Assembly: GCA_902764415.1 (NCBI GenBank)
Contig: CACWVU010000004.1
Coordinates: forward strand, 15,758-79,757
Length of the DNA stretch: 64,000 nucleotides
Direction: 5' to 3'
Origin: an uncultured bacterium
Lineage (GTDB): Bacteria; Verrucomicrobiota; Kiritimatiellia; RFP12; UBA1067
Below, in pieces: positions 10,370-29,393 of the stretch. The translations under genes and the position numbers were made by a program. The notes beneath the pieces were generated by a model that searched no databases, was not told the origin of the DNA, and saw nothing but the letters and a program-made list of their open reading frames with translations. Every line of letters begins with the position of its first letter. Within the stretch, counting starts at the first letter, position 1.

Positions 10370-10430
10370 GTGATTTCCCTCTCCTTCTCAAGCAATTTGA
10401 AACATAGTATATCACAACCCCGATAATTTG

Positions 10431-10476
10431 TCTATTAGGAATCCGAGGATTTGTCTATTAGGAATCCGAGGATTTG
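10431..10476. repeat. perfect 23-bp tandem duplication (TCTATTAGGAATCCGAGGATTTG x2)
   Basis: Seen directly in the sequence, immediately upstream of direct-repeat copy 2. Confidence 0.85.
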
Positions 10477-11409: not shown

Positions 11410-12138
11410 TTATACCTCCTCCATCGGCATGGCTATAAAATCATTAAGTTCTTTCCGCAAAATCCTCCAGCGCGGCAATCGCCTGTCCATAAGCTCTACA
11501 AACGCTCTGGAGTGGTTCGACACCTCGAAATGCGTCAGCTCATGTACGACCACATACTCAATGCATCTTGCGGGCACTCTTCCAAGCGCGGCGTTGAAAA
11601 CGATCTTGCCGCGTTTCTTAAGACAACTCGCCCACCGAGTCTTCATCTTCCTAATTTCGGTTTCGGGAAGAGCAAGCTTCAACTTCCTGCACCATCCTTT
11701 CATCTTGCCCGCCAGAGACTCACCCAACATCGCCTTCTGCCATGATTCGACGATCCTCTCCTTATGCCCTCGTGAAGCGCCCTCCCGCACGTACAACGAC
11801 AACTTGTTGCCGCCCCACGTCACCTTTTCCGTCGCATAACGATCTTCCACGACAACCAATAGTTTATACCGGCGGCCAAGACAATAAATGCTCTCTCCGC
11901 TCACATACTCCCGACGCGTCTGGCGAGGCTGGGAAAGAACAGTCTTCCGCTGGTCGCGTATCCAGCCAATCTTGGATGCAAGAAAACTTCTCAAATCGCG
12001 GTCGGAAAGATCATCTGGCGCAGAGACATGCACCCTGGCATCCGGCGGATAGATGGCAAGATGCGTGTGCTTGATCTTCTTTCGCTCGACTTCAATCTGT
12101 ATTCCGGCAACTATCATAGCATCACATCCACGGTTCAT
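11410..12138 (-). CDS. YgjP-like metal-dependent hydrolase (DUF45 / M48 family)
   Basis: HELTHFEVSNHS zinc-binding motif. Sits in the classic position downstream of hsdR. Confidence 0.75.
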   Translation of the reverse strand: MNRGCDAMIVAGIQIEVERKKIKHTHLAIYPPDARVHVSAPDDLSDRDLRSFLASKIGWIRDQRKTVLSQPRQTRREYVSGESIYCLGRRYKLLVVVEDRYATEKVTWGGNKLSLYVREGASRGHKERIVESWQKAMLGESLAGKMKGWCRKLKLALPETEIRKMKTRWASCLKKRGKIVFNAALGRVPARCIEYVVVHELTHFEVSNHSRAFVELMDRRLPRWRILRKELNDFIAMPMEEV

Positions 12139-15100
12139 CGCTCATATAGGAATCTGCATCGAACTCACCTTGGTGTTCGACGATCTGATATACGGTAAGG
12201 GGATTGAAGTCCGTGCCCTGAAGCGCATCTTCTATCGCCATCTCGACCTTTCGCCGGCGTATGGCGTTTCTTCGAAAGCCGGGCTTGGCGCTTGCTCCGA
12301 CAGCCTCGAAGACCTTGAGCGCAAGGTCAGCATCGCCGCCCAGGTTGTCGCACAGGCTACGCTTGGCCTCGGTGTCCAGGCGCGGATCTTCAACTGCCGT
12401 GTCGCCTTTCAGTTCCTTGCCCATCTTTGCGATTTCCGCAAGTAGCTTTCTGTATTCAATCTTCTCCTTGCGGTAGTCTTCGAGAAGCCTGTTAATGCGC
12501 TCAGAGAACTTGCGGTACTCGGCAGGGTTGGTCTCTTTCTTTCTGAAGATGTAGCGTCTGACGTTTGCCACAAGCGTTTCCGCGACGCCGCGTTCGCCCC
12601 CGACCTCGGACTCCACGTCGGGATCGACCGACCCTCCATCGTCTTTGTCGATTTTTATCAGATCGAGAAACGAAAGATCCTCGAGGTCGGCGAGTTTCAA
12701 CGCATGCTTGGCCGTGACGAAATTGTCGAGAAGCGATCGCATCTCGGCATCGTAGAGCTTGAGGTCCACGAAATCGCCGGCTCGCTTCATGATCGCCTCG
12801 CGCAGCATGTCGTAGTTGCGCACCTTCTCCTTTAGCGCAGCCGCCTCGGCGGGGGAGTAGCCGGCCTCGTCAGTTTCCTGCGCGATGTCGCTCCAAGCCC
12901 TTACCGCGGCGATGCAGGCCTGGTAGAAGTCTTCCCGCAGCTGCGAATCCCCGGGTCTCTGCGCTTCACCGCCAGGTTCTGCGCCTGGGCGCGTGCCGTT
13001 CTGCGCTTCGTCGCGTGCGATGAAGTAATCGCAATACTCATCGATCCCCTTCGGCGGCAGTACCGGTTCCGAAAGAATATCGCACCGTTCAAGAGCTGCT
13101 TCAAGCGCCTTGCGACCTTCTTCAAGCCGTCCCTTGAGGAGCCCCTCTACATCTTCTTTCTCAAAGTTCTTGAACGCGCCGTTGGTGTAGTCTTTGACTG
13201 CGCCCCTTATGCTCTCAAAGAGATGTTTGTAGTCGATGATGTAGCCATAGCGCTTTTTCTCCCCGTTTAGCCGGTTGACGCGGCAGATGGCCTGGAAAAG
13301 GTTGTGGTCTTCCATCTTCTTGTCGATGTAGAGATAGGTTGCGGGCGGCGCGTCAAAGCCGGTCAGCAGCTTGTCAACCACAATCAGCAGCTTCATCTTC
13401 GCCGGATGCTCGACAAACTCCTTCTTCGCCCATTCTTCGAAATCTTCGGGCGATTTTTCTCCGCGCATAGCAAGGTTCATCCTGTGCTTGTACTCGGCTT
13501 CGGTAAGCTGCTCGCCGGTGAACGCCTCGGCAAGACTTGGCTCGTCGCCACCGTAGCTCGTCACTACGGCGCAATGATCCTTCAGCGGCGAGAGAGCGTC
13601 GCTGAACATCGCCCAAAACCGATATGCCTGATACACCGACTCGCAAACCAGCATCGCATTGCCCCATCCGTCGCGGAGCGCTGGCTTGAGCCCCATGTCC
13701 ATGCAGATGTCGGTGACAATACGCTGTACGCGCTCTTTCGCCGAAAAGAGATTCTGCATCCGCGCCCAGCGCTTCTTCAGCTCTTCCTTCTTGGCGGGAA
13801 GAAGGTTCTTGGTCTTATGTTCGAAAATCGAGTCGAAAGTCACGTCTTCGGCGAGGTTCTGCTCGATGTCGCGCGCCTCATAGCGCAAATCAAGCACGAC
13901 GCCGTCCTCTACCGCCTCATCGAATTTGTAGGTGTGGATGAACGGCCCGAAATTGGCATAGCTCGTAAGCACTCCCTTCTCGCTTTTGAGAAGAGGCGTT
14001 CCCGTAAAGCCGATCAGCATTACATCTGGCCCCATGATCTTCTTCATCGCCAAGTTCATCACCCCGCCTTGCGTGCGGTGGCACTCGTCAACGAAAACGA
14101 AGATATCGCCCTTCGCCTTGAAGCCCAGCGGCAATTTCTCGGCAAGCTCCTTCAAATAAACCGCAGCCGACCTTTCACCCCGCAATCTGCGCTCGCGAGC
14201 ATCAAGCTTCTCCTTGGACCCATTCGCGCCAAATTTGTGAATCAGTGTTGTAATAAGCCGTTCACGCGATTTGTTCAACGTTGCTATCAAGTCGGCGCCA
14301 CTTGTCGCGCGATATGGCTTCTCGCCGGCCTCCTTGAAGCCGTTTGTAATCTGCTTGTCGAGTTCGTCGCGGTCGGTGATTATCACCACCCGCGCATCGG
14401 GGCGATGTTCCTTGATCCACTGCGCAAGCCAAACCATCGTAAGCGACTTGCCGGAGCCCTGCGAATGCCAGATGATGCCCGACTCCTTGCGCATGATGCG
14501 AGGCTTCGCCGCCTCCAGCGCAAAGAACTGTGCAGGTCGCATAACCTTCTTCACACCGCCGTCAAAGACGATGCCGTCGTGTATAAAGGCCAGCAACCGC
14601 TCCTTGTCAAGCATCTGTGCAAACGAGCGGTCAACGAGCGGCTTTATCTCCGCTTTGCTCCACCTCGGCACGGCGCACGGATTGCCACAAGGCTCTTTCC
14701 ACTTCAGCCAGTGTTTCTCAGGGGTGAGCGTCGTCGCATACTTCAGACCCTCAGATTCGTTGCCCGCCATCAGCAGCTGCGCAGCGGCAAAAAACGCCGG
14801 TATCTCCCCCTCTTGCTGATTGCGGTAGTTCTGGCGAATTCCCTCGGCCACGCTCACATTCGCCTTCTTTAGCTCGATCACGCAAAGGGCAATGCCATTC
14901 ACCCAGATCACGACATCAGGCCGGCGATGGCCGTTTGCCGCGACCTGCCGCCTTACAGTCACCTCCTCGGCTATGGAGAAGTTGTTTTCGAGCGGGTGTT
15001 GCCAGTCGATGAAATAAACCTGTTTCATCGGCTTCCCGGGCTCGGTCGCAATCGACATCGGGTATCTGAGGGTCAAATACACTTCTTTGTTTACGTTGTA

Positions 15101-15376
15101 GAGGTCGGCCTGGCCCGGGCATGCCATGCGCTTCGCGAGCTCGGCTATTGCACGGTCGGCACATGCGGGCTCTAGCTTTTGCTTGCAGACAAGGAACTCC
15201 TTCAGCGCCTGGCGGTCAAGGCAAGAATTCTCTCTTTCCGAAAGATCGCCCAGATAATCATAGCCAAGCTTTGTTCGCAATAGTCCAATGATGCGATCTT
15301 GAACCGCTCGTTCGGAGGCAACCACAGCGCCCGCGCCGTGGAACGAAACCTCGCCTTCAACCTTATCGTTTTGCAT
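12122..15376 (-). CDS. hsdR: type I restriction enzyme R subunit
   Basis: HsdR_N-like N-terminus, SF2 helicase motifs (GSGKSLT, FVDECHRTQGG), 1084 aa. Confidence 0.9.
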   Translation of the reverse strand: MQNDKVEGEVSFHGAGAVVASERAVQDRIIGLLRTKLGYDYLGDLSERENSCLDRQALKEFLVCKQKLEPACADRAIAELAKRMACPGQADLYNVNKEVYLTLRYPMSIATEPGKPMKQVYFIDWQHPLENNFSIAEEVTVRRQVAANGHRRPDVVIWVNGIALCVIELKKANVSVAEGIRQNYRNQQEGEIPAFFAAAQLLMAGNESEGLKYATTLTPEKHWLKWKEPCGNPCAVPRWSKAEIKPLVDRSFAQMLDKERLLAFIHDGIVFDGGVKKVMRPAQFFALEAAKPRIMRKESGIIWHSQGSGKSLTMVWLAQWIKEHRPDARVVIITDRDELDKQITNGFKEAGEKPYRATSGADLIATLNKSRERLITTLIHKFGANGSKEKLDARERRLRGERSAAVYLKELAEKLPLGFKAKGDIFVFVDECHRTQGGVMNLAMKKIMGPDVMLIGFTGTPLLKSEKGVLTSYANFGPFIHTYKFDEAVEDGVVLDLRYEARDIEQNLAEDVTFDSIFEHKTKNLLPAKKEELKKRWARMQNLFSAKERVQRIVTDICMDMGLKPALRDGWGNAMLVCESVYQAYRFWAMFSDALSPLKDHCAVVTSYGGDEPSLAEAFTGEQLTEAEYKHRMNLAMRGEKSPEDFEEWAKKEFVEHPAKMKLLIVVDKLLTGFDAPPATYLYIDKKMEDHNLFQAICRVNRLNGEKKRYGYIIDYKHLFESIRGAVKDYTNGAFKNFEKEDVEGLLKGRLEEGRKALEAALERCDILSEPVLPPKGIDEYCDYFIARDEAQNGTRPGAEPGGEAQRPGDSQLREDFYQACIAAVRAWSDIAQETDEAGYSPAEAAALKEKVRNYDMLREAIMKRAGDFVDLKLYDAEMRSLLDNFVTAKHALKLADLEDLSFLDLIKIDKDDGGSVDPDVESEVGGERGVAETLVANVRRYIFRKKETNPAEYRKFSERINRLLEDYRKEKIEYRKLLAEIAKMGKELKGDTAVEDPRLDTEAKRSLCDNLGGDADLALKVFEAVGASAKPGFRRNAIRRRKVEMAIEDALQGTDFNPLTVYQIVEHQGEFDADSYMSDEPWM
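12955..13022. repeat. GC-rich 22-24-bp tandem repeat (GTTCTGCGCYTSGSCGCGTGC x3), in-frame inside hsdR
   Basis: Same repeat family as 16015-16112 and 16276-16322. Encodes ...GAEPGGEAQRPGDSQ... Confidence 0.7.
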
Positions 15377-15389
15377 CTCTTCTCCTCCC

Positions 15390-16700
15390 TTAACTAACTG
15401 CTTGCGCCACCGCCTCGTCGATGCCGCTCAACACTGCTCCTTTGTAATCGATTTCAACCGCGCCATCATCGGCAATCAGCTGGGCAATGCGGTTTAAAAC
15501 CTGCGCCTCGTGGCGCGTCATTGCTTTCTCGCCCGGCACATACGGCCAGCCAATCGGCGCGAGCATCAGCAAATTGCCCGCCGCACACGTTTCAAATAGC
15601 TTGCCGCCCGGCTTGTAGAGCGGCGAAAAGCCCTTGTTCTGCAATGTTATCACGCGGTGCCCCGCCTCGAAGGCGCGGCGGGCGATCTCGCGCTCGCCAT
15701 GGCTGATGCATGGGCTAAGCAACACCGCGCCCTGCGCCGCCGCGCGCATGGCGGCGGTCGCCTTTTCCTCAAATTCAGGTGTTGATTTTTCCACCATCGG
15801 CTTGCCGGCGGAATCGCGGCAAATTTGCCAACCACTCGGCAACCGCCGCCGCTTGTAGGCGAAGAAAGAGCGCGAGCATTGAATCTGGCAAATAATCGGC
15901 CGCGTCAAAAGAAAGTGGTTGCCAATCGCCATAAAATGCCCCTTCGCCGGGCCGCGCCAGGGGGGAATACCGGCTCGCTCGCGAGCCGACGCAGAACCAG
16001 CCTCGCCCCAACCGGGGTTCTGCGCTTGGGCGCGCGTGCTGTCCTGCGCTTCGCCGCGCGCACGGTTCTGCGCTTCGCCGCACGTGGGGTCCTGCGCTTC
16101 GCCGCGCGCGGCGAAGTCAACCTCAATATCGCGTGCCACCTTGAAAAGTTCTAGGCAAGCCCGCTTGATGCCCAAGCGCCGCGGGTTGGCACGAATGTAG
16201 GCAATCATCTTTTCAAGCTGCCCCGCGCGAAATAGTATCAAATCAACATACCCAGGCGCCCATAACCCTACCGCCATGTTCTGCGCTTGGGCGCGTGCGT
16301 GTCCTGCGCTTGGGCGCGTGTTCCAAAGTTCCCCCGCGCGGCTTGTACTTTTCGACTTGAAGCTGCCGATGATATTGCCAAGTTTTTTCTTCTGCTGCTC
16401 CTTCACGAAGATGATGCCATGAAAATGATCGGGCATCAGCTGGCTTTCAATCACTTCAACCCCTGGCCACTGCTGAGGAATCTCGCGCCAGCATTGCTCG
16501 ACAATCAACCCGATCTCGCTTGGCTCAACCCGCCACTCCTCGCCCTCGCCGACAAGCCGCCCCAAAGCCGGCCGCGACCGATCGGCCAGCGTGATCGTGA
16601 TCATGTAAATGCAGCGCGAGGAATAGTCCCAGTTGAAGCACCGCCGTCCCATGTGGTGCTTCACCTCCTGCCTCACTTCGCTCTTATGTTTAGCGGTCAT
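15390..16700 (-). CDS. RayT/IS200-like HUH Y1 transposase domain fused to an unknown C-terminal domain, interrupted by in-frame repeats
   Basis: HuH motif MPDHFHGIIF plus LWAPGYVDLILF...YIRANPRRLG (the RayT 'W..F.DH.I...Y..NP..GL' pattern). Unknown C-terminal domain of about 200 aa. Repeat-encoded RAQAQN/GEAQD stretches. Confidence 0.6.
   Translation of the reverse strand: MTAKHKSEVRQEVKHHMGRRCFNWDYSSRCIYMITITLADRSRPALGRLVGEGEEWRVEPSEIGLIVEQCWREIPQQWPGVEVIESQLMPDHFHGIIFVKEQQKKKLGNIIGSFKSKSTSRAGELWNTRPSAGHARAQAQNMAVGLWAPGYVDLILFRAGQLEKMIAYIRANPRRLGIKRACLELFKVARDIEVDFAARGEAQDPTCGEAQNRARGEAQDSTRAQAQNPGWGEAGSASARERAGIPPWRGPAKGHFMAIGNHFLLTRPIICQIQCSRSFFAYKRRRLPSGWQICRDSAGKPMVEKSTPEFEEKATAAMRAAAQGAVLLSPCISHGEREIARRAFEAGHRVITLQNKGFSPLYKPGGKLFETCAAGNLLMLAPIGWPYVPGEKAMTRHEAQVLNRIAQLIADDGAVEIDYKGAVLSGIDEAVAQAVS
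16015..16112. repeat. GC-rich 24-bp tandem repeat x4 inside the RayT-like gene
   Basis: GGTTCTGCGCTTGGGCGCGCGTGC-type units, in frame. Confidence 0.75.
16276..16322. repeat. GC-rich 24-bp tandem repeat x2 inside the RayT-like gene (between the HuH and Tyr motifs)
   Basis: ATGTTCTGCGCTTGGGCGCGTGCGTGTCCTGCGCTTGGGCGCGTG. Confidence 0.75.
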
Positions 16701-16717
16701 GGATTGCCTCGAAACTT

Positions 16718-19700
16718 TTATGACTGAGTTGTGTTTACCTGAATCTTGCCATCAGCTTTTTCGCTAGTGGAAGACACAATACCTTTCCCTTTTAGAAACT
16801 CGATGAAAGCCCCGACACCTTCCCATTTTGAAATCTGGGGATGACACCCGAGTTCTCCAAGTCTATTATATGGCTCTGACATTCTCCTTAACCGATTGCG
16901 TATTTCATCGGTGTCGCCACCAAGATGCTGGATGATCTTACACTGCAATGTCGCCAAACTTAGCTTCCCAACAACCGCATCGAGTATCGCCTCATCAAAC
17001 TGTGTGTAGTTTCCAACATTGATGTAAGACGCGACACCAATAATTAAATCTTCATTGCCGAGTACAACATCTTTAAGCGTGTTGGCAACCATCGGTATGT
17101 TACGACGCGAAATCTTGTCAGGCGCAAAAAGTTTCTTGACATCATCCCTGTTTGCCATACCGTCAGAATACTCATTGCAAAACTCATTTATAAACATTGC
17201 CGCATAAACAATGTGAGAATCATTGCCTATATCACGAAGAGCCTGATACAGCTCATTTGAATACTTAATACGATTACCTTTCGCAAGATACTCAATTCGC
17301 TTGGGCGTCGCATTTGCTCCTGAATATCTTGATATAACGCCTTTACTCATACCTGACAAGAGGCCATTCATTGCGTCATCTGACAATTGCACTTCTTCTG
17401 CCAATCGCTTTGCCAAATTCTCATCTTCCTCCCACGCTATACCGCGCGAATTCTTCTGAGATAAAACCGAATAACAATCTATGTCATTTACATACTCCCA
17501 GAACAAGGTCTCGTCATCTGTGTTTCTATTCCACACCTCAGCTGCGTTATTCCATGTTGGCACAAGCCACTTGAGTCTTATACAAAGAGCAAGCGCCCTA
17601 TCCGACACGAGCTTCTTTGCGTCATCAATTCTACCTTGTTTTGATTGTTTCTCCACGAAACGAGTTATGTCATCCTCGCCCAAATCATCACGGTTGAAAA
17701 CAAAAGCAATATTCTCAATAGAATCTTCCTGCTGCGACTCCAATTGCAAATACACATTGTCAAGATACGTTTTAAACTCTCTGTCCACATAGTCAACAAG
17801 TTGCTTGATTCCACAACTATTAATCACCGAATAGTTCTTCTTCTCAAAATCGCTCACATCAATCCCTTTGGCGTTCAATATCTCCTTCAGCATATTTGCA
17901 TCAAGTAAATATGCGCATTCAGATATGACAACCTCAATAAATCCAGTCTCTTGCGCCAATTTAAAGTCAAGCACTTCGAACTTCAAGTCAAACTGCCTCA
18001 CAAAAGCTGTCATAGTCTCTACATCGTTAATCCCATTGTCTCGCAGCAACTGCGGCATGGCCGCTGTCTGCTCCACATACTCTTTTACAATGTTAGACGG
18101 AACAACAGCTTTCTCCTGTCGCATTGTCCACGCGACATACAGCCCCAATTGCTTTTCAATAAACTCGCGTGGCCAGCCGTCTCCCGAAACTGAAGTCTCT
18201 ATCAACTCTGCCATGTAGTTCGGAGTTGCCGACATGATGCAGTCAAACAACTTTCTTGCATCGTCTCCCTTTGCCACTTCCGTAAGATATCCATCTACAA
18301 ACTCATAACTTCTCAAATCCTTTTTGGAAATTAGTTGCCAAAATTCCTTTGCCTTCTCACTCTCGGGGCTTGTCAAAAGTTCGCGGCAAATGTCATAGTT
18401 CGGCATAGATGGAGTCGAGAAATAATGCAGCTCAAGACTTTCAATTAGCGCCCTAGGATTTTTGAGTTTGGTTTTCCAATCAGCATCATCGCCTCGCGTA
18501 ACACCAACTTCAAAAAGGTAATCCTGAATAGAATTAACTCCGTCAACCTCATGGAAGATCGAAATGTTGTAATAATACTTTTCGTTGAGATAGCCATTCT
18601 TCAACAAGAGAATCACAAGTTCTGCATCTTGCCGATCTTCGCTGCTTTCCTGAATGATTACCTTAATCTCATCATCTTTCAAGACGCCTTCTACCATTAA
18701 TTCCTGAATCGTTTTATGCTTGATAGTTAGGCGACGTTCCTTTAGGACCTGAATTTCCTGTTTGATCTTTTCAATACGCCCATTTTGATGCGACTCAATT
18801 CGTTTGACGTGTTCATCGTATGTACAGTTAGGGTCTGTCTTCTTTTCGATATCCGCCCATTTTATCGGGCGATTTCCATACGAACCTCCTGAAAATCCAT
18901 TTCTGCGCAACACCTCAAACCAATTATCATAGTAGAGTATCGCCGAGGCAAACCTTTGTTCTCCCTGAATATGCACATAGGCGTTGTGAGGATCAAACTC
19001 TCGCATCAATGTAGCATAATACAACAATTGCAATTGTTGAATGTCCGTCAACTTTTCCCCATTGATGCAATCAATCTCATGTTTCAAATTGCTAATCTTA
19101 TCATCAATATCTTTTGCCAACCTTTCCTGGGCTTCTTTTTTCTTCTCAAGGAACTTCCACATCATACCTCTTTCATCATGCATGAGGGCAAAATCCTTGG
19201 GAAAGAAGTTTTTGAACACAACAAGTCCCAAGAGTTCTTGCTCAGAGGTATAATCGATTACTTGCTCTCTGTAAGTGTAATATTCATTGCAAATGTTCTT
19301 GAGAAGCCGCATATCCGAGATGTACGGCGAAACCACCTTTACAAATCTTACCAATGTCTCATCTGGCTTAGTGTCGCTCCAGTCATTGAGAAACGCCAAC
19401 AACTCCGTGCGTGAATTAGATGCATTTATTCGCGGAATGATCGGAATAACAAAATCAAAGAATTTCACTTTGCTCTTTTCATCTTCAAACAGTTCTTCCC
19501 GAAGCGCATATATAAATCTTATAGGTTTTTTCTTGACACTTATCTGATGGGAATTGTTCAGAAGTAGATTTAGCTCCCGCAACTTCGTGAAGATACATAA
19601 ATCATTAAATCTATCGATGTCCTCAAAAACAACTATAGAACATTTTGAGGCAGAAAAGAAATTAATGATTGTCCTTATGTTACGGTTAAGCATAGAACAT

Positions 19701-20380
19701 GACGGGATATCCGGCATCTCAATTTCCAAGCCAGCAAGCCCAGCGCCACTTACATCAACACGTTTAATGCCTGTATCCTTTAGCCAGTAAACCACTTTAC
19801 GCATAGCCATTAGAGAAACAGCAACAACCTCAAACAATGAAAACCAAAATATAACACATGCGTAATTTGCGACCCAATCATGTATCGCCGGTGTTACATA
19901 CTTCACAAAAACATCTGGTTGCATAATGCCAATGATACCCCCACCTATCAAAAGCACTACGGTAATTATTTTCCAACTCCACCATGCCGCATCCTTATGC
20001 AGGTGAACTATTTGCTGCAAAATACTTAATTCTAATTTGTGCTCAAACTCAGTTTTTTCCTCTTCTGTCTTGCCAATTCTATGTTGCTCAAGGAATAAGG
20101 CCAAAGAAACCCACAGAACATTCTTCTTTCCCTTGAAATAAGTCCTCAAGAATGAACTTTTCCCAGCCCCATACAATCCAGTTACCGCAATATTTTTGAT
20201 AGCATCGTTCTTTGACGACAGCGCAAAATCCATCGCCTCAGAGTACGTCTTGATATCTTCCGCGTTCTCTGTCGGTGTTAGCGATTGGAACGGCGATTCT
20301 ATCGAATGCCAAATATTTGTCGGCAGCATCAATTCCAAGACTTTCATAAGACATTTCTTCATGGCATATCCTCCCGTCAA
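16718..20380 (-). CDS. KAP-family P-loop NTPase (1220 aa) with TM segments inserted in the NTPase domain and a large uncharacterised C-terminal region
   Basis: Walker A GLYGAGKSSFL, inserted hydrophobic helices (WWSWKIITVVLLIGGGIIGIM...), Walker B VVFEDIDRF. 4-nt overlap with the upstream gene. Confidence 0.8.
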   Translation of the reverse strand: MTGGYAMKKCLMKVLELMLPTNIWHSIESPFQSLTPTENAEDIKTYSEAMDFALSSKNDAIKNIAVTGLYGAGKSSFLRTYFKGKKNVLWVSLALFLEQHRIGKTEEEKTEFEHKLELSILQQIVHLHKDAAWWSWKIITVVLLIGGGIIGIMQPDVFVKYVTPAIHDWVANYACVIFWFSLFEVVAVSLMAMRKVVYWLKDTGIKRVDVSGAGLAGLEIEMPDIPSCSMLNRNIRTIINFFSASKCSIVVFEDIDRFNDLCIFTKLRELNLLLNNSHQISVKKKPIRFIYALREELFEDEKSKVKFFDFVIPIIPRINASNSRTELLAFLNDWSDTKPDETLVRFVKVVSPYISDMRLLKNICNEYYTYREQVIDYTSEQELLGLVVFKNFFPKDFALMHDERGMMWKFLEKKKEAQERLAKDIDDKISNLKHEIDCINGEKLTDIQQLQLLYYATLMREFDPHNAYVHIQGEQRFASAILYYDNWFEVLRRNGFSGGSYGNRPIKWADIEKKTDPNCTYDEHVKRIESHQNGRIEKIKQEIQVLKERRLTIKHKTIQELMVEGVLKDDEIKVIIQESSEDRQDAELVILLLKNGYLNEKYYYNISIFHEVDGVNSIQDYLFEVGVTRGDDADWKTKLKNPRALIESLELHYFSTPSMPNYDICRELLTSPESEKAKEFWQLISKKDLRSYEFVDGYLTEVAKGDDARKLFDCIMSATPNYMAELIETSVSGDGWPREFIEKQLGLYVAWTMRQEKAVVPSNIVKEYVEQTAAMPQLLRDNGINDVETMTAFVRQFDLKFEVLDFKLAQETGFIEVVISECAYLLDANMLKEILNAKGIDVSDFEKKNYSVINSCGIKQLVDYVDREFKTYLDNVYLQLESQQEDSIENIAFVFNRDDLGEDDITRFVEKQSKQGRIDDAKKLVSDRALALCIRLKWLVPTWNNAAEVWNRNTDDETLFWEYVNDIDCYSVLSQKNSRGIAWEEDENLAKRLAEEVQLSDDAMNGLLSGMSKGVISRYSGANATPKRIEYLAKGNRIKYSNELYQALRDIGNDSHIVYAAMFINEFCNEYSDGMANRDDVKKLFAPDKISRRNIPMVANTLKDVVLGNEDLIIGVASYINVGNYTQFDEAILDAVVGKLSLATLQCKIIQHLGGDTDEIRNRLRRMSEPYNRLGELGCHPQISKWEGVGAFIEFLKGKGIVSSTSEKADGKIQVNTTQS

Positions 20381-21585
20381 TACTCGCCCATCTCTCGTTT
20401 AATCGGCTGATGTTTGCCATATTCATAATAGCAGGCCAACGTAAGAAGCATTTTAATCTCACTATCAGGCATATCGCGCTGGTCGATCTTGACCCACTTG
20501 CATACAAAATCTTTTGCAATCATATCTATGTCTGGTGTCGCCCAATCACGCTTGTCTGGATTCCCAAGATATTCAAATATTTTTCGCAAAGTATAATTCA
20601 ATTTTCGAGACTCTTCCACCTCTATTTCTGTCAGATGATTTACTATGCTAAAGTATTCAGCGTAGTCAAGCCTCGAGAAAGCCTTGCAAAGCGCGGGTAG
20701 GGAATCAACAATCTCTTGCCTGAACATCTTTACACGCGATTGATTTACTTCAAGCGTACACGGGCATTCCAAGAGATCAATAAGTTGCTGTGTCTCGTAA
20801 ACAGACCAATCATCACATCGCTTGTCAAACTCATCCCGCATAAACTTCAGTTGATCCAATGGTGGTAACTGACTGTCAACTTTGACCATTTTCCAGGCCT
20901 TAGTGCTCTCCTTTATTTTCTTGTTCACTTTATCAAGCACTAAACCGAGGGACTCATACCGTGACTTCAGATAATCTTTTAAAACCGAGAACCGAACACG
21001 TAAAGTCTTCCAATCACGTTCTTTGACAGACGAATATATCATAACACCGACATAATCATCTGGCTCGTATGCGTATCTCTTCAGCGCGCGCTCGACAATG
21101 AAGGGGCAATACTGAACCTCTCCTTCAAGAAGAATGCCTTGTGATCTTGTAACCATACCCGGATGGGCAAATACCAAAGAACGAAAGTATTGAAAAAATG
21201 CATCATCAGTAGGACAACCTTCTTCGGGAATGCTTAACGGCTCGCCCATGCAGACATTTTTGAAGAACTTACAACTATCTGGATGCCCCTTGTCAAAAAT
21301 TGTTGCGCTTAAACCAAACTCCTCGCGCAGGCGCTCTATTGAGTCCTTAACTACGCTTGCAAACATCATGAATGTCATCAACCCTGTCGGGGCATCCATA
21401 CCCTTGGGAGTCTCCTGATGAGTGTTTATCCATGCCGTCGCATGTCGCAACCGATCAAGCACCGCACAAACCTGCGAATGTTTGGCTTTTAACTCCTCGT
21501 CATAGGAAAATACATTTGTGCTATTCAATGTGCCGTACATTGAATCACAAATACGCTCATCGAGTAATGGTTTAAAGGAGTTCAT
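20377..21585 (-). CDS. hypothetical protein (402 aa), translationally coupled to the KAP NTPase
   Basis: Non-GC-artefact amino-acid composition. ATGA overlap with the KAP gene. No motif recognised. Confidence 0.6.
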   Translation of the reverse strand: MNSFKPLLDERICDSMYGTLNSTNVFSYDEELKAKHSQVCAVLDRLRHATAWINTHQETPKGMDAPTGLMTFMMFASVVKDSIERLREEFGLSATIFDKGHPDSCKFFKNVCMGEPLSIPEEGCPTDDAFFQYFRSLVFAHPGMVTRSQGILLEGEVQYCPFIVERALKRYAYEPDDYVGVMIYSSVKERDWKTLRVRFSVLKDYLKSRYESLGLVLDKVNKKIKESTKAWKMVKVDSQLPPLDQLKFMRDEFDKRCDDWSVYETQQLIDLLECPCTLEVNQSRVKMFRQEIVDSLPALCKAFSRLDYAEYFSIVNHLTEIEVEESRKLNYTLRKIFEYLGNPDKRDWATPDIDMIAKDFVCKWVKIDQRDMPDSEIKMLLTLACYYEYGKHQPIKREMGEY

Positions 21586-21615
21586 AGTTAGTCGGTTCCA
21601 TAGCGTAGTTCAAGA

Positions 21616-22623
21616 TTATTCATAACAAGCTGGCCGATGTCCTCGCGCCCAGACCCAGTTATTAGAATGGTCTGCTCCAATGGTGTTTACAATGGTAATA
21701 GTACTAGACTCAATTTGATGCTTTGATAGGAACTTATAGATCGTTTTTACGTCATCCTCCGTAATAACACAACCCCCAATAACACGTATCAGGTCAAAGC
21801 CTGCGCTTGTTAGAGAAAATGTATGCACCCACAGTACGCCTCCGGTTATTCTAAGCCTAGACACACCATCACTTAATCTAATCGTCAACTCTTCTGATCC
21901 TTCAAGTGGATTCATCTTTGCCGCCGACTGAAGGTTACTCATCAAGCCAAGTTCTTGAAATCGTACGATGTCGTCATACGAACCAAATATTGGCCTGTTA
22001 TCATAGCTGACAATCAATTCGCCGCCAATCGCTCCTCTACACAGATTGGCAAAACACATGCAATCGTTCTTTGACAGGTTCTTAACAACATCTAACGTTC
22101 GCATCGAGATTCGATTAGGCTGCACGACCTCTTCTTTCAAGAGCCCTGCCCACCACTGACGAAGTTCATTATCGTCAATCATTTCCGCCTCTCGACGCCA
22201 ACGATTGAAAAAAGTCTGTGATATCGGTTCATCAGAAATTTCTTCGGATGGGACTGTAGATATCTGTCGTATTGCCTCTTCCATGGCTGCCTGTAAGCGA
22301 CGTGCGTCTGACATATGGTTTAGTGTATGCAAAGCATCATAGGCATCCACAACCGTAACAGGTGCAGGGCAATCCAGCAATTGACCTTCTCTGTAAACTT
22401 TTATACCGTTTCTTACGTCAGTACAGTCTTTTTCTGTCTGCGCTTGAATCAACGCTACAGCCCGTTCGTTCTTAGCGATCCATTTGCCAAACAAAGCTTT
22501 TAGCAACTTGCCTAACCCTTTATTGGACGACGACACAACATCGGCTGTCGCCTGAACCAATGGCGTAGCATCAGCACTCACATCTGCATTAACATTTCCT
22601 TGCACTGGAATTGTCGCTCTCAT
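21616..22623 (-). CDS. hypothetical protein (335 aa); possible DUF2806 / Abi-like
   Basis: Segment ...FFNRWRREAEMIDDNELRQWWAGLLKEEVVQPNRISMRTLDVVKNL... resembles the DUF2806 family as I recall it, with low certainty. 3-nt gap after hsdS. Confidence 0.55.
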   Translation of the reverse strand: MRATIPVQGNVNADVSADATPLVQATADVVSSSNKGLGKLLKALFGKWIAKNERAVALIQAQTEKDCTDVRNGIKVYREGQLLDCPAPVTVVDAYDALHTLNHMSDARRLQAAMEEAIRQISTVPSEEISDEPISQTFFNRWRREAEMIDDNELRQWWAGLLKEEVVQPNRISMRTLDVVKNLSKNDCMCFANLCRGAIGGELIVSYDNRPIFGSYDDIVRFQELGLMSNLQSAAKMNPLEGSEELTIRLSDGVSRLRITGGVLWVHTFSLTSAGFDLIRVIGGCVITEDDVKTIYKFLSKHQIESSTITIVNTIGADHSNNWVWARGHRPACYE

Positions 22624-22626
22624 GTC

Positions 22627-23997
22627 TTATTCTCCTTTCAACCTTGTCTTACCCGTCAGCAGTTCCTGCATCATGCCGGATTTGATGCGCTCGTATTTCG
22701 CACAGTCGGCCTCAAGCGCCGCAATCTCCGCATCCATGTCTGATACCACCGCCCCAATCGCCTTCTGCTCGGCAAGAGTGGGGAAAGCAAACGCCAACCC
22801 TTCAATATCCTTTGCATTCAAATTGTTGATTGCCGACCCAGTAAGGATATCATCCAACTGCCGCCGGTAACTCTGTGATTGAAGCAGATATCCCACAAAG
22901 CATGAATCAACACTTTTTACACATCGAAATACAGCCATAAAAGCACCAAAAGTAGCTACCTCCGCTTTATGCCATACTGCCGCCTTACCAACAAGGTTTC
23001 TACTGCCGTTTGCGGCACAAATGAGTATATCCCCTTCAGTCAACTGCTGACAACCTGCTATACACTCATTCATCACATACAAAACATCATGGCAAATGAT
23101 CTGGTTGTCTTGAATATTATTAGCTCTAAGTAGCACTGTGGCGTTTGGCATTAACGTAAGTGATGATTGCTCTGGCCTGAAACTAACACCTCTAATCGAT
23201 TCACCGATCCCTCCCAGCCGCTTCACCTCCCAATCCACGGGAATGGGGCCAAGTTCAGTCTGCTTGAACTCGGCGCGTGCTGCGCCAAACCCCGGCAGGC
23301 GGGTTTTGCCGGTGAGGAGCTGCTGCATTGCACCAGTCTTGATGTTACGCTTTTTCTCGATGAGTTTCCCCAACGCCGAAATCAACTCATCGACATCCGA
23401 CAACGCCCTCGCGATCCTCCGCTGCTCGGCGAGAGGGGGAAGAGGGATTTCACTTCGCGAAAGATCGCCTATACTTATACTTGCTTGGTTAATAGCTATT
23501 TTAGCCAGCTCGCGTGCCTTGCTCCTCATGGGGGATGATGAAAGAGCATAATACAAATAGTTTGCATTGGCACTTTCGTTACACCGCAAGAGCAGAAGAT
23601 TCATCCCATGATATAACAGCTCCTTGCCATCATATAATGCAACATTCCCAATGTATGGCAAACTATTTATGTGGCTAAACAGGATATCACCGTTGCTCAA
23701 CATATAATCAGCGGGCGGCGCATCTTTTACATAACCAACGCGAGAATAATTCACAACGCCTTTTGAGATTGTCTCAATTCGAGAAATCTTATAAGAGCCA
23801 CGATTACACACCGAATAAGTAAATCCATTTTTTATTCGTGTGCAACATTCCCCCAGCCGCTTCACCTCCCAATCCACGGGAATGGGGCCGAGTTCGGTCA
23901 TCTTGAACTCTGCGCTCTCAGCGGTCTCTGCGTGAGGTTTTTCCCCGCCCGTAGCATTAGAACCGAGTTCAGCCTTTCTTGATTTCGGCGGCTTCAT
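22627..23997 (-). CDS. hsdS: type I restriction-modification specificity subunit
   Basis: Two target-recognition domains, each preceded by the conserved repeat ...TELGPIPVDWEVKRLGE... Confidence 0.9.
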   Translation of the reverse strand: MKPPKSRKAELGSNATGGEKPHAETAESAEFKMTELGPIPVDWEVKRLGECCTRIKNGFTYSVCNRGSYKISRIETISKGVVNYSRVGYVKDAPPADYMLSNGDILFSHINSLPYIGNVALYDGKELLYHGMNLLLLRCNESANANYLYYALSSSPMRSKARELAKIAINQASISIGDLSRSEIPLPPLAEQRRIARALSDVDELISALGKLIEKKRNIKTGAMQQLLTGKTRLPGFGAARAEFKQTELGPIPVDWEVKRLGGIGESIRGVSFRPEQSSLTLMPNATVLLRANNIQDNQIICHDVLYVMNECIAGCQQLTEGDILICAANGSRNLVGKAAVWHKAEVATFGAFMAVFRCVKSVDSCFVGYLLQSQSYRRQLDDILTGSAINNLNAKDIEGLAFAFPTLAEQKAIGAVVSDMDAEIAALEADCAKYERIKSGMMQELLTGKTRLKGE

Positions 23998-25076
23998 TCA
24001 CCCTCCTTTCCGCGCTCGCCCTTCTCCTTCTTGATCTCTTCTTCGAGCGCGAGGAGGTAGCGGTCGTAGTCGCTCATGAAGAGCCGGTCTTGCACGATGC
24101 GGTATTTCTCGAACTCGTTTTCAGCATGTTCTTCCGCAATTGCGGCGGTCACATTCTCGACCTGTTCAATCGTAATCGGTCCGTCCCAAATCGCCACAAA
24201 CTTGTCGAGGCGCCTCTCCCACGCCTCCATCGTCATAGGGATATGCCGAAGCGCGGCATTCTCCGCAAATTCCAGGTAGGCATTGACAAGCCTCTCAAGC
24301 ATTCCAAGTTCATCTTCGGTCAAGTAGTTCTTGGCAATGACTACGTCGCTCTTGCGAATCTTTCCATTGGGCGAAGCCGCCCAGCTACTCAGCCCCATGT
24401 GCTCCTTCGCCGCGTCGGCACGCGAAAAGATGATTTGGGCTGCCGTAAGGCCGTTGACAGCTTGGTGCATCTTGTTCTGGACTGTCGCAAAGAATCTCCG
24501 TGTCCGAAGTGCCTTGCTGTCATAGTCGATGGCAGTCGCGTAGATGTCCGTCACCTTCTGATAGAACTTACGCTCGCTCAGGCGTATTTCTCGAATATCT
24601 TCAAGGAGACGTTCAAAATATTGATTTGAAATCGGAGAACCATCCTTCATTCGAGGCTTGTCGAGAACATAGCCACGAATCGTGTACTGTGAAACGATCT
24701 GGTTGGCCCACTTTCTGAACTGCACCGCCCGCTCGTTATCTATCTTGAAGCCAAGAGCGATTATAACTTGCAAGTTGTAGTGGTTTACACGGTAGTTCTT
24801 GCCGTTGTCGGCAACTATTAAAATTTCTTTAATAGTTGACGCCTTATCAAGCTCGGCGTCTTCGTACAATTTCCGCAAATGGTAGGCGATGTTCGGCACC
24901 TCCACGCCATACACCGCCGCGAGCATTTTCTGGCTCATCCAGATATTCTCGTCTTCGTAGCGTATTTCATACCGCTCGTCGACAGCACCGACAGAGGCAA
25001 TGTAAGTAATGAACTGGGCCGCGCTCGACTTCTGAGGCTCCATGTTGTCCCAATTGCTCTTTTTCTTCTTTGCCAT
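23994..25076 (-). CDS. RhuM-family protein (often embedded in type I RM loci)
   Basis: N-terminal ...IWMSQKMLAAVYGVEVPNIAYHLRKLYEDAEL... is typical of RhuM. 4-nt overlap with hsdS. Confidence 0.65.
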   Translation of the reverse strand: MAKKKKSNWDNMEPQKSSAAQFITYIASVGAVDERYEIRYEDENIWMSQKMLAAVYGVEVPNIAYHLRKLYEDAELDKASTIKEILIVADNGKNYRVNHYNLQVIIALGFKIDNERAVQFRKWANQIVSQYTIRGYVLDKPRMKDGSPISNQYFERLLEDIREIRLSERKFYQKVTDIYATAIDYDSKALRTRRFFATVQNKMHQAVNGLTAAQIIFSRADAAKEHMGLSSWAASPNGKIRKSDVVIAKNYLTEDELGMLERLVNAYLEFAENAALRHIPMTMEAWERRLDKFVAIWDGPITIEQVENVTAAIAEEHAENEFEKYRIVQDRLFMSDYDRYLLALEEEIKKEKGERGKEGE

Positions 25077-25087
25077 TGGCTGCCTCC

Positions 25088-27421
25088 TTACGGTTTAGCG
25101 ACCTTCGCCACTATCCCCATCTCTACGAGGTGCGCCATTACCTTTCCGCGCAGGGCGGCGACATCGGCCTCGAGCGATGCGAGCGGCCTGTCGTAGCGTT
25201 CAGCGAGTGCCTTTACCTCTGCGGCGATTTGCGAGAGCGTGCGGTCAAGCTCTGCGTCGAAACGGCGGTGTAGTTCCTCTGCCCACTTGTGATGAACGAC
25301 GAGAGTCTTTACATCATCTCCTGTAAGTTCCTCGTAGATGCTCTCGATCTCCCATGCAAAGCGCCTGTCGTCCTCGCGCAGATCTTTCTTGAATAACGCT
25401 ATGCTTTTCTTTAGCTTTTCGACCTCTTCGGGCATTTCATCATCTTCGCCAAGCCCTTCGGTCAATTCGGCGAATTGCGATTCAAGGCCTTCAAGCTCTT
25501 CGACGCGCTCCAAATAGCTCTCGTATGTTTTTGCGCACCGCCCTTTTGCCACGACTTCAGGCGGCAAAAGGTCGCACTGAAGGTCGCGCCAGCCATACGA
25601 TTTCTTCTTGGGTTTTACGAGCCTGGCCTGCCAGCCATCGCGGCAGATAAGATAGCAATCATCTTGCATAGTCTCCGCCCAGTAGTTCATCAGATGTTCG
25701 TATAGGGCGTAGGGGGATGCCAGAGATTGGCTCGCACGCGAGCCAGCGCAGGACAACGCGGGCTGGCGCAAAAGTTCTTCGCCCCATTCTGCGATAATTT
25801 TCTTTGGCTCGGCACCGCGCTTGAGGCCAAGCGCCTTGCGCGTAAAATCGCCAAGCCACCGCGCACAGGCGTTCTCAAACGCATCTATCTGCCCGGCCAT
25901 TTCATCACCCTCTCGCAATTCGCCAACAATCTCTTCCTTGGGCAACGCGAGCTTTACAAAGCCCTTGCGAAGCGGCTTAAAGAGACACGCTGGGTATTTC
26001 GCCGCCTCGTCGACCGGGATACCACCCTTTAGATGGGATGTAAGATTCTGCCGAACTTCCTTGTCGGATGGTGCGACATAGCGCGGTATGTTGAGGTTGT
26101 AGTCGTTTGCCTCAATGTCGGCATACTTCACGAACTGCGCGTAGTGTGGCACGTTCTCGCCGGCGTTCCAGACGTCGACAATGCGCCTTACGTCGCTTTC
26201 GCGCAAGCGGTTCTTCGCGCCATCTTTGGCAAAACCATCTTTGGCATCGATCATAAAGACACCCTTCGATGCCGTCGCGCCTGCTTTATCGAGCACTATG
26301 ATGCAGGCGGGGATGCCCGTGCCGAAGAAAAGGTTTGGTGGCAACCCGATGATGCCCTTTATCCAATGGTGGCGCACGATGTACTTGCGTATCTCCGCCT
26401 CGGCGTTGCCACGGAACAAAACGCCATGCGGCAGAATGACGGCGGCGCGTCCGCTCGGTTTCATCGACTTCAGGATGTGCAGCAAGAAGGCATAGTCGCC
26501 GCACTTCGGCGGTGGCATGGGCGCGACCCCCTCGCCATGCCCCCAGCGCCCGAAGCGATCCTCTTCGCTCGCGCCCTTGAGCCAGCTCTTGACGGAGAAC
26601 GGAGGATTGGCAACGACATAGTCGAACGTGCAAAGCTCGCGGTCGTTGCGCTTGTGCAGGGGATCGGTCAACGTGTCGCCGTGCCTGAGGTCTGGATCGT
26701 CCACGCCATGTACGACCATCGACATGCGCGCCATGCCGATTGTGGCCACGTCCTTTTCCTGGCCTTGTATGGCGACACCCCCTTTCGCCTCCGCCGCCGC
26801 GCGAAGAAGAAGCGACCCGGACCCGCAAGTCGGATCGTAGATCGAAATCATCCTGCGCTTGTCGTCGCCGATGCCGATCACCTTCGCCATTACGCGGCTA
26901 ACTTCGGCGGGGGTGTAGAACTGCCCCTTCGACTTGCCCGACTGCGTGGCGAAGTTTTTCATCAGGTACTCGTATGCGTCGCCGATCAGGTCGTCGTCGG
27001 CAGCGCGGTTGTTAGAGAAGTCGAGGTCTTCGTCCTGGAACACGCCGATGAGTCCGCTCACCGTGTCGACGAGGTCCTTGCCCTTGCCAAGCTTCGTCTC
27101 GTCCGCGAAGTCGGCGTTGTTGACAACGCCTTCAAGGTCGTTCGCGGAGGCGATCTTGGCGAGGATCACATTCACCTTCTCGCCAATGTCCTTGCTGCCC
27201 TTGAGCTGGACAAGGTCGTCAAAGCTGCAGCCCTTCGGTAGTTCTATCAAGAGCGACTTGTCGCCCGATTTCTTCTTGTCGCTCAGGTACTTGATGAACA
27301 GCACCACCAGCACATAGTCCTTGTACTGGCTCGCGTCCATTCCGCCGCGCAGTTCGTCGCATGCTTCCCAGAGCTTTGAATATAGCTGTGATTTCTTAAT
27401 TGCCATCGCTGATACCTCCAC
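25088..27421 (-). CDS. hsdM: type I RM N6-adenine DNA methyltransferase subunit with a long coiled-coil C-terminal extension
   Basis: HsdM_N-like N-terminus, SAM motif, VVANPPFSVKSW (NPPF). 777 aa. Confidence 0.9.
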   Translation of the reverse strand: MEVSAMAIKKSQLYSKLWEACDELRGGMDASQYKDYVLVVLFIKYLSDKKKSGDKSLLIELPKGCSFDDLVQLKGSKDIGEKVNVILAKIASANDLEGVVNNADFADETKLGKGKDLVDTVSGLIGVFQDEDLDFSNNRAADDDLIGDAYEYLMKNFATQSGKSKGQFYTPAEVSRVMAKVIGIGDDKRRMISIYDPTCGSGSLLLRAAAEAKGGVAIQGQEKDVATIGMARMSMVVHGVDDPDLRHGDTLTDPLHKRNDRELCTFDYVVANPPFSVKSWLKGASEEDRFGRWGHGEGVAPMPPPKCGDYAFLLHILKSMKPSGRAAVILPHGVLFRGNAEAEIRKYIVRHHWIKGIIGLPPNLFFGTGIPACIIVLDKAGATASKGVFMIDAKDGFAKDGAKNRLRESDVRRIVDVWNAGENVPHYAQFVKYADIEANDYNLNIPRYVAPSDKEVRQNLTSHLKGGIPVDEAAKYPACLFKPLRKGFVKLALPKEEIVGELREGDEMAGQIDAFENACARWLGDFTRKALGLKRGAEPKKIIAEWGEELLRQPALSCAGSRASQSLASPYALYEHLMNYWAETMQDDCYLICRDGWQARLVKPKKKSYGWRDLQCDLLPPEVVAKGRCAKTYESYLERVEELEGLESQFAELTEGLGEDDEMPEEVEKLKKSIALFKKDLREDDRRFAWEIESIYEELTGDDVKTLVVHHKWAEELHRRFDAELDRTLSQIAAEVKALAERYDRPLASLEADVAALRGKVMAHLVEMGIVAKVAKP

Positions 27422-29160: not shown

Positions 29161-29169
29161 ATTATAGCA
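29161..29169 (-). promoter_or_regulatory. extended -10 TGCTATAATACGCG, candidate promoter of the 11-gene island operon
   Basis: About 16 nt upstream of the ATG of the MTase-TRD gene. No SD. Confidence 0.45.
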
Positions 29170-29393
29170 TATTGGCCGCACTGTGTCAAATCGGTATCTT
29201 AATACCAAATACAATGGTAGTAAAATCCTTTGCTTGCCCGTCTCAAACATACTCAATATGATATGGATTAGGTGGCCCATCAGTAACACGCGAAAGTCGG
29301 TCCAAGACCCGTGCCCTTCCGTGGAAAGGGCATGCCTAAGCCTCTATACAATACTGCCGCGAGACGGCAAAATATCACGCAAAAAATGGCGGA

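Follow-up and report, generated by a model that had tools for sequence, protein, structure and literature searches.

Positions 16718-22623 of the window, the 64,000-nucleotide (nt) stretch of contig CACWVU010000004.1 analysed here, hold three minus-strand genes between hsdS and hsdR of a type I restriction-modification (RM) operon. The region is probably a stack of three independently exchangeable single-gene defence cassettes, co-transcribed with the RM genes and lodged in an hsdS-hsdR hotspot:

21616..22623, minus strand: cassette 1, 335-amino-acid (aa) DUF2806 protein, Abi-alpha-related (PF10987, 2.1e-14)
20377..21585, minus strand: cassette 2, 402-aa protein of an unannotated family (no library match)
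16718..20362, minus strand: cassette 3, Tmn NTPase of 1214 aa (Pfam YobI-ATPase, 7.2e-83; PADLOC Tmn, 1.6e-66)

A sequence-only reading of the same DNA had proposed a three-gene KAP-NTPase module forming an undescribed system. Its three minus-strand open reading frames (ORFs) lie where it had placed them, at 21616-22623 (335 aa), 20377-21585 (402 aa) and 16718-20380 (1220 aa, the longest ORF), but the module itself did not survive comparison: each gene is found without the other two, and Tmn is a known, self-sufficient system. Conserved co-occurrence of the three families fails outside a narrow group of close relatives, the complete triad being confined, among the sampled loci, to the window population, L050 and L033. 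The functional part of the proposal, that accessory anti-phage genes are co-transcribed with a type I RM operon, is upheld, since two of the three genes belong to families with validated defence members (Tmn and DUF2806/Belisama) and the hsdS-hsdR position is a documented hotspot for defence cargo.

Exchange of the three genes among related loci

About 40 related loci, carrying numbers between L005 and L050, were compared, with contexts sampled from all three genes. Every pairwise linkage among the DUF2806, 402-aa and Tmn genes is broken in some locus. This is readily seen in L024-L027, where a near-orthologous operon (HsdM 90%, RhuM 97.5% and HsdR 93% identical) carries in the same slot the DUF2806 gene, a different KAP NTPase of 700 aa and a RayT-like gene, with neither the 402-aa gene nor Tmn. 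The slot of L028-L030 holds DUF2806, the 402-aa gene, three small genes and the RayT-like gene, again without Tmn, and DUF2806 and the 402-aa family are likewise together without Tmn in L013. In L039-L041 DUF2806 is followed by an unrelated 279-aa gene and Tmn, and in L042-L044 it lies inside BREX, in L042 without Tmn or the 402-aa family. The Tmn relatives that are 54-91% identical to the window protein all lie downstream of hsdS, the 402-aa gene being kept only in L031-L033. L031 has DUF4365 in place of the window's DUF2806, and in L034-L037 the slot is occupied by two small genes, PDC-S49 KAP-like proteins or AbiTii. Overall, the alternative occupants comprise AbiTii, DUF4365, PDC-S49 and PifA/QatA-like KAP proteins. 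Three genes were considered as disguised members of the 402-aa family and rejected: the 398-aa gene of L024-L027, which is a RayT-like homologue by BLAST, and the 279-aa (L039) and 396-aa (L042) genes, which a hidden Markov model (HMM) search did not place in the family.

Between the window and its relatives, collinearity breaks exactly at gene boundaries, and the block that is swapped differs from one comparison to the next:

21572-24026: HsdS and DUF2806, swapped relative to L031
~16710-21697: 402-aa gene and Tmn, swapped relative to L024
16635-20417: Tmn alone, swapped relative to L028

The sequence identities are equally discordant. Against L033, the 402-aa gene is 93.8% identical at the nucleotide level, compared with 80.2% for DUF2806, 75.4% for Tmn and 70.4% for HsdR; nucleotide identity this high beside flanks of 75-80% points to recent cassette exchange rather than to purifying selection. 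Against L050, DUF2806 is 99.9% identical, HsdM, RhuM, the 402-aa gene, Tmn and the RayT-like gene are 87-95% identical, and HsdS has been replaced. HsdS is also swapped elsewhere, falling to 35-46% identity where the HsdM, RhuM and HsdR of the same operon retain 89-97%. Another cassette occurs both with and without Tmn, namely the 245-aa gene of L034 and the 257-aa gene of L028, which are 55% identical. Collectively, the broken linkages, the breakpoints at gene boundaries and the discordant identities indicate that the hsdS-hsdR junction is a cassette hotspot and not the site of a three-gene system. The locus thus shows clearly, in a natural setting, how cassettes are shuffled one gene at a time at hsdS-hsdR, with breakpoints at every gene boundary.

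The three encoded proteins

The 402-aa family is the most novel element of the locus. Neither the window protein nor 64 diverse relatives matched any model in Pfam, NCBIfam, PHROGs or PADLOC, no P-loop family being matched in Pfam, NCBIfam or PADLOC; the PDC and HEC models of PADLOC v2 gave no consistent match for the 335-aa protein, the 402-aa protein or the 64 members. The family comprises 45 close clusters, and a profile search of 1.84 billion representatives extended it to 586 clusters (50% identity), 374 of them at E <= 1e-10. Across the family only R45, R135 and H141 are invariant, the latter two within the motif R-S-L-x-F-A-H-P (R135-x5-H141). The protein is soluble, and its AlphaFold2 (AF2) model (pLDDT 90.3, pTM 0.78) is mostly helical with a three-stranded sheet. 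A fold search of the PDB with this model returned no match, and PDB-based fold searches detected no HEPN or nuclease fold. Four members of 638-668 aa (P0022, P0031, P0033 and P0035) are extended at the N terminus by about 240 aa that include a predicted transmembrane segment; a Pfam scan of the longer or fused members gave no match. We infer that the 402-aa protein is a stand-alone candidate defence gene of an uncatalogued family, and our best guess is that it is a latent enzyme built on the invariant Arg and His residues.

The family occurs in varied genomic contexts, mostly without an NTPase nearby. As the sole gene between hsdS and hsdR it is found in metagenome-assembled genomes (MAGs) of Kiritimatiellae (L015), Bacilli (L016) and Alphaproteobacteria (L018), where its stop and start codons overlap or abut those of the hsd genes. 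It follows hsdS in Clostridium sp. KNHs205 (L019) and is embedded in type I RM operons also in the window, L028 and L031-L033. In BREX loci with a split PglX it is flanked by the gene for the N-terminal half and that for the C-terminal half (L005, L008) or lies upstream of the C-terminal half (L007). In L009 it adjoins a PLD-SNF2 helicase and an MmeI-like methylase, and in L013 it accompanies AbiH and DUF2806 with no NTPase. In L006 it is next to an SLFN helicase. More distant members adjoin a Gabija-like pair (L017) or UvrD (L021); type III RM genes and PLD and PD-(D/E)xK nucleases are among their other neighbours. Finally, three viral contigs of about 33 kb (L045-L047) carry a member of 32% identity (2119-3267 in L045) just past the endolysin gene and oppositely oriented, a site typical of prophage morons or defence genes.

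Recurrent placement next to a specificity or methylase component (after hsdS, between PglX halves or after an MmeI-like enzyme) suggests that the family could guard methyltransferase-based immunity, as a PrrC-like latent toxin restrained by an HsdMS, PglX or MmeI-type complex and freed once that complex is disabled by a phage anti-restriction protein, for instance an Ocr- or Stp-like inhibitor. Confined to cassette 2, this reading does not conflict with the stack of independent cassettes. The gene prrC (EcoprrI) is the published precedent for a defence gene embedded in type I RM, and the family resembles PrrC/RloC in its hsdS-hsdR position (L015, L016, L018; after hsdS in L019), in being co-oriented and in its tight coupling to the hsd genes. 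The further type I RM operons, the split-PglX sites and the neighbouring MmeI-like methylase are consistent with the same idea, and the invariant Arg-x5-His is loosely similar to the HEPN Rx4-6H signature of PrrC/RloC-type nucleases. However, PrrC and RloC have an N-terminal ABC-type NTPase domain that the 402-aa family does not, the fold searches detected no HEPN or nuclease fold, and the family also occurs with no RM gene adjacent, in the prophage moron (L045) and beside the Gabija-like pair, UvrD and the SLFN helicase. Other embedded systems act independently of RM, namely DarTG2 at hsdS-hsdR of the RRDM island of enteropathogenic Escherichia coli (PMC12255303) and TgvAB in VPI-2 of Vibrio cholerae (10.1101/2024.04.04.588119). 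A guard function is considered unlikely. It appears quite unlikely that the family is a new single-gene effector tied to methyltransferase-based immunity, a latent enzyme set off by the disabling of the methylase/specificity complex, with PrrC-like logic on an unrelated fold and no NTPase switch.

For cassette 1, the earlier suggestion of a DUF2806 protein was borne out, PF10987 being matched at 54.3 bits against a cut-off of 24.5. Its relatives form 76 homologous clusters, some of which also match PF14337 (Abi_alpha), a model that the window protein itself does not match at E <= 0.01. The score against TIGR03899, 40.3 bits, is below the cut-off of 155.65, and comparison of the AF2 model (pLDDT 75) with the PDB gave no informative neighbour. 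Belisama, from integron cassettes of V. cholerae, is a DUF2806 protein validated as a toxic, abortive-type defence that needs only a single gene (bioRxiv 10.1101/2024.07.02.601686). By its domain content, the 335-aa protein is predicted to be a stand-alone abortive-infection gene of the Abi-alpha/Belisama kind.

Both the DUF2806 and the 402-aa families were seen among the genes inserted into split pglX. In three BREX loci separate genes encode the N-terminal methylase and the C-terminal part of PglX (~621-2429 and 11194-13257 in L005/L008; 5268-7115 and 13584-15035 in L007; 2493-4763 and 8011-10002 in L042), with two to nine accessory genes between the halves, including YhcG/DUF1016, Fic, Tle1-like, HAD, CHAT and RhuM genes besides the two families. 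The arrangement is analogous to the hsdS-hsdR slot.

By sequence, cassette 3 is Tmn, a predicted membrane-anchored P-loop NTPase. It matches PF20693 (YobI-ATPase) with E 7.2e-83 and 279.5 bits (cut-off 27) over profile positions 1-362 of 363, and the PADLOC Tmn model (PDLC02220) with E 1.6e-66; a sequence search of the PDB gave no match. The hallmarks named in the sequence-only reading were all located: Walker A (GLYGAGKS) at residue 68, its lysine being K74 when numbered on the 1220-aa ORF, Walker B (IVVFEDID) at 249, and a pair of hydrophobic helices spanning roughly 134-195 (from hydropathy only, with 19-mer windows that start at 132-141 and 169-176). Its description of some 800 C-terminal residues as lacking any recognisable motif was not sustained, the PADLOC model aligning to residues 227-879 and 629 plasmids, chiefly of E. 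coli, carrying full-length homologues that align over 96-97% of the protein at 23-25% identity. Residues 401-500 are the most divergent (47% identity to L033 and 72% to L031, compared with 70-100% elsewhere), and this peak just after the NTPase domain is as published for the proximal arm of Tmn.

An ATGA overlap of the 402-aa and NTPase genes had also been claimed. The longest ORF starts at a TTG (20380) and the overlap reads TTGA; the stop codon of the 402-aa gene (TGA, 20379-20377) overlaps only this TTG. An ATG at 20362 is preceded by the Shine-Dalgarno sequence GGGAGGA, and both the alignments of the L034-L037 homologues and independent gene calls (1214 aa) begin there. Tmn is therefore assigned 1214 aa, starting 14 nt downstream of the 402-aa gene with its own ribosome-binding site.

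Several observations weigh against fully independent cassettes. Within this species the three genes are stably linked, the arrangement being fixed in the window's own population: over 23 contigs, drawn from separate rumen and gut metagenomes, carry the exact DUF2806 protein, and two population contigs are 100% identical to the window over eight genes. All three genes stand in the same order in L033, where Tmn is only 72% identical, and the 402-aa gene adjoins Tmn in all five operon variants whose Tmn is at least 72% identical. Two further operon types, L024 and L039, also have DUF2806 ahead of a KAP-type NTPase. The G+C content (GC) of the three genes is 41-45%, compared with 56-60% for HsdM, HsdR and the RayT-like gene, which is compatible with joint acquisition. 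The 402-aa protein may have a modulatory role, and the sampling of contexts was modest and partly redundant.

Taken further, the same observations would make the locus an obligate multi-gene variant of Tmn, in which the 402-aa protein, with or without DUF2806, is a dedicated sensor, regulator or antitoxin-like partner. The 402-aa gene and Tmn adjoin at the same junction in the window, L031, L032, L033 and L050, the full triad is present in L033 and L050, DUF2806 precedes Tmn in L039 and the KAP protein in L024, and low GC is common to the three genes. Against this, every pairwise combination is broken elsewhere, Tmn relatives of 69% identity or less have no 402-aa gene, the 402-aa family mostly lacks an NTPase nearby, the 402-aa gene of L033 was exchanged independently of both flanks, and the overlap expected of translational coupling is absent. 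Moreover, the E. coli Tmn is active without partners. No conserved operon architecture emerged from a survey of 785 representatives, whose authors regard Tmn as self-contained (PMC13001434). The same holds within the present clade, the 402-aa gene being missing from L034-L037 and L039 and DUF2806 from L031 and L034-L037. An obligate multi-gene system is, on balance, decidedly improbable.

The surrounding operon

The gene order HsdM-RhuM-HsdS-335-402-NTPase-RayT-HsdR given by the sequence-only reading agrees with the Pfam annotation. The locus lies within a low-GC island (~9.1-31.7 kb of the window, 39-60% GC; genome ~67% GC) whose genes are on the minus strand throughout. From the upstream to the downstream end, the further features are:

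29394-30725, minus strand: PDC-S01-type ATPase (AAA_14/DUF4143; PADLOC PDC-S01) at the upstream end of the RM operon
29161..29189, minus strand: putative operon promoter, TTGACA-17 nt (TG-extended)-TATAAT, a 12/12 match to the sigma-70 consensus
27396..29144, minus strand: operon gene 1, N6-adenine methylase fused to a half-HsdS-like specificity domain, 582-597 aa (Pfam N6_Mtase, 2.2e-17; PADLOC mad2, MTase_I and Specificity_I)
25088..27406, minus strand: HsdM, type I RM methylase subunit (HsdM_N and N6_Mtase in identical copies)
23994..25076, minus strand: RhuM-family protein between hsdM and hsdS (Pfam Virulence_RhuM, 3.6e-93)
22627..23997, minus strand: HsdS specificity subunit (Pfam Methylase_S)
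15390..16700, minus strand: RayT-like (HUH/Y1) domain with a C-terminal domain, 436 aa (Y1_Tnp, 2.9e-4, and REP_Tyr_transpos, 3.4e-12, both below curated cut-offs)
12122..15376, minus strand: HsdR, restriction/translocase subunit (HSDR_N, ResIII, SWI2_SNF2 and T1RH-like_C in identical copies)
11410-12138, minus strand: YgjP-like metallopeptidase of the operon tail (Pfam), kept after hsdR in L015, L024, L031 and L033
10641-11408, minus strand: RadC-like JAB protein of the operon tail (Pfam), kept after hsdR in the same four loci
9140-10369, minus strand: second PDC-S01 ATPase (AAA_14/DUF4143; PADLOC PDC-S01) at the downstream end of the RM operon

Some 17 nt separate the upstream promoter-like site from the likely start of gene 1, which is Met16 of the listed ORF (~29144). 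The TTG listed as its start (29189) is judged wrong, and a start near 29144 correct, because the sigma-70 consensus occupies 29161-29189; homologues and ENA gene calls also start at the Met near 29144. Spacers are short, with 3 nt between HsdS and the 335-aa gene, 30 nt between the 335- and 402-aa genes and 17 nt between the NTPase and the RayT-like gene, and no convincing minus-strand terminator was seen within the array. This layout fits a single operon of 11 genes and ~18.5 kb, predicted to be read as one transcript.

Homologues of the RayT-like gene lie directly upstream of hsdR in L024, L028, L031-L034 and L039, whatever the cargo. That the three genes are non-defence passengers or remnants of a mobile element tied to this HUH protein is very improbable. 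In favour of that reading, the variable slot ends at a RayT-like gene in every related operon, the cargo has a foreign GC content and a 24-nt repeat is common to the RayT-like gene and hsdR. Against it, defence has been validated for relatives of both Tmn and DUF2806, and the slot is elsewhere filled by AbiTii, DUF4365, PDC-S49 and PifA/QatA-like KAP proteins. The genes are also intact, closely spaced and transcribed in the direction of the operon, the cassette junctions (spacers of 3-30 nt) show no terminal repeats or REP hairpins, and the RayT-like gene behaves as framework, staying while the cargo changes.

The RayT-like protein itself has an HFH (HUH-type) motif, a YIRANP tyrosine motif and an unannotated C-terminal domain of ~190 aa; a sequence search of the PDB gave no match. 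An in-frame, GC-rich tandem repeat of 22-24 nt, with a unit of about GGTCCTGCGCTTCGCCGCGCGTGC (+ strand) encoding 'RGEAQ'-type peptides, occurs at 16016-16108 and 16277-16320 in this gene and at 12976-13018 in hsdR. All seven window matches of its 15-nt core fall within these two genes, compared with 0.96 expected. RayT-like homologues vary between 398 and 444 aa, with alignment gaps at the repeat region. A perfect 23-nt tandem repeat, ATTTGTCTATTAGGAATCCGAGG, is present in 2.2 copies at 10426-10476, between the RadC gene and the downstream PDC-S01 ATPase gene.

The two PDC-S01 ATPases, which bracket the RM operon at both ends of the island, match the PADLOC model at 1.5e-128 and 1.6e-138 and are 23% identical to each other. 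The methylase/half-HsdS fusion, whose best PADLOC match is mad2, stands ahead of hsdM in the same position in L015, L024, L039 and L048.

Proposed action and comparison with known systems

In the proposed scheme, the three cassettes would add abortive-type second-line defences behind restriction. A 2026 preprint (PMC13001434) describes E. coli Tmn as a P-loop NTPase that forms decamers in the membrane. When its helical arm engages the phage trigger T2 RIIB, ATP is turned over faster and Mg2+ is exported, which leads to plasmolysis. By analogy with the E. coli homologues, the window Tmn would recognise a phage protein through a long C-terminal arm, alpha-helical and solenoid-like, that sets its specificity; ATP turnover would rise, Mg2+ would be exported and plasmolysis would arrest the infection. 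The DUF2806 protein, judging from the shared domain, would be a toxic Abi-alpha/Belisama-like effector acting alone, and the 402-aa protein a stand-alone candidate defence, conceivably the latent Arg/His enzyme guessed at above. Any interplay is more likely to be loose than to involve obligate subunits; for example, a Tmn-driven collapse of ATP might trigger the neighbours, as has been published for Gabija and Septu. Such loose interplay of Tmn with its neighbours is plausible because Tmn has been reported to co-occur and synergise with PrrC and with systems that sense ATP depletion.

The window Tmn resembles known Tmn in matching the YobI-ATPase and PADLOC Tmn models and in its length of ~1200 aa with a long C-terminal region. 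It differs in its host, a Kiritimatiellae-like rumen bacterium outside the phyla listed in PMC13001434, and in its setting. All sampled members of its clade are preceded by hsdS and, wherever the contig reaches far enough, followed by the RayT-like gene and hsdR of a type I RM operon, whereas published Tmn has no conserved context. The range of Tmn is thereby extended to a Kiritimatiellae/rumen clade directly downstream of hsdS in every sampled case, and this context bears on the published Tmn-PrrC co-occurrence and on the triggering of neighbouring systems by ATP collapse. The 335-aa protein is likened to Belisama by shared domain only, both being DUF2806 single genes that move as cassettes of their own; Belisama resides in an integron and the 335-aa gene in an RM operon, with relatives also in BREX. 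The ~400-aa family constitutes a testable candidate, being fairly widespread and marked by strong guilt-by-embedding in three kinds of methylase-based systems and by its position as a prophage moron.

At the level of the whole locus, the closest counterparts are DarTG2, TgvAB and the PDC candidates of the 'guilt-by-embedding' survey (Payne et al. 2024), which counted embedded genes in the thousands across type I RM, BREX and DISARM. These share with the window their operon logic and their site, known from the literature as a recombination hotspot for defence cargo. The 335- and 402-aa proteins are set apart from the catalogued PDC and HEC sets, none of whose PADLOC v2 models was matched consistently, and the window departs from the DarTG2, TgvAB and PDC loci in that three different single-gene cassettes are stacked. 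The locus is accordingly of a known kind, in which defence genes are stacked inside a type I RM operon, and what it adds is one uncatalogued candidate family.

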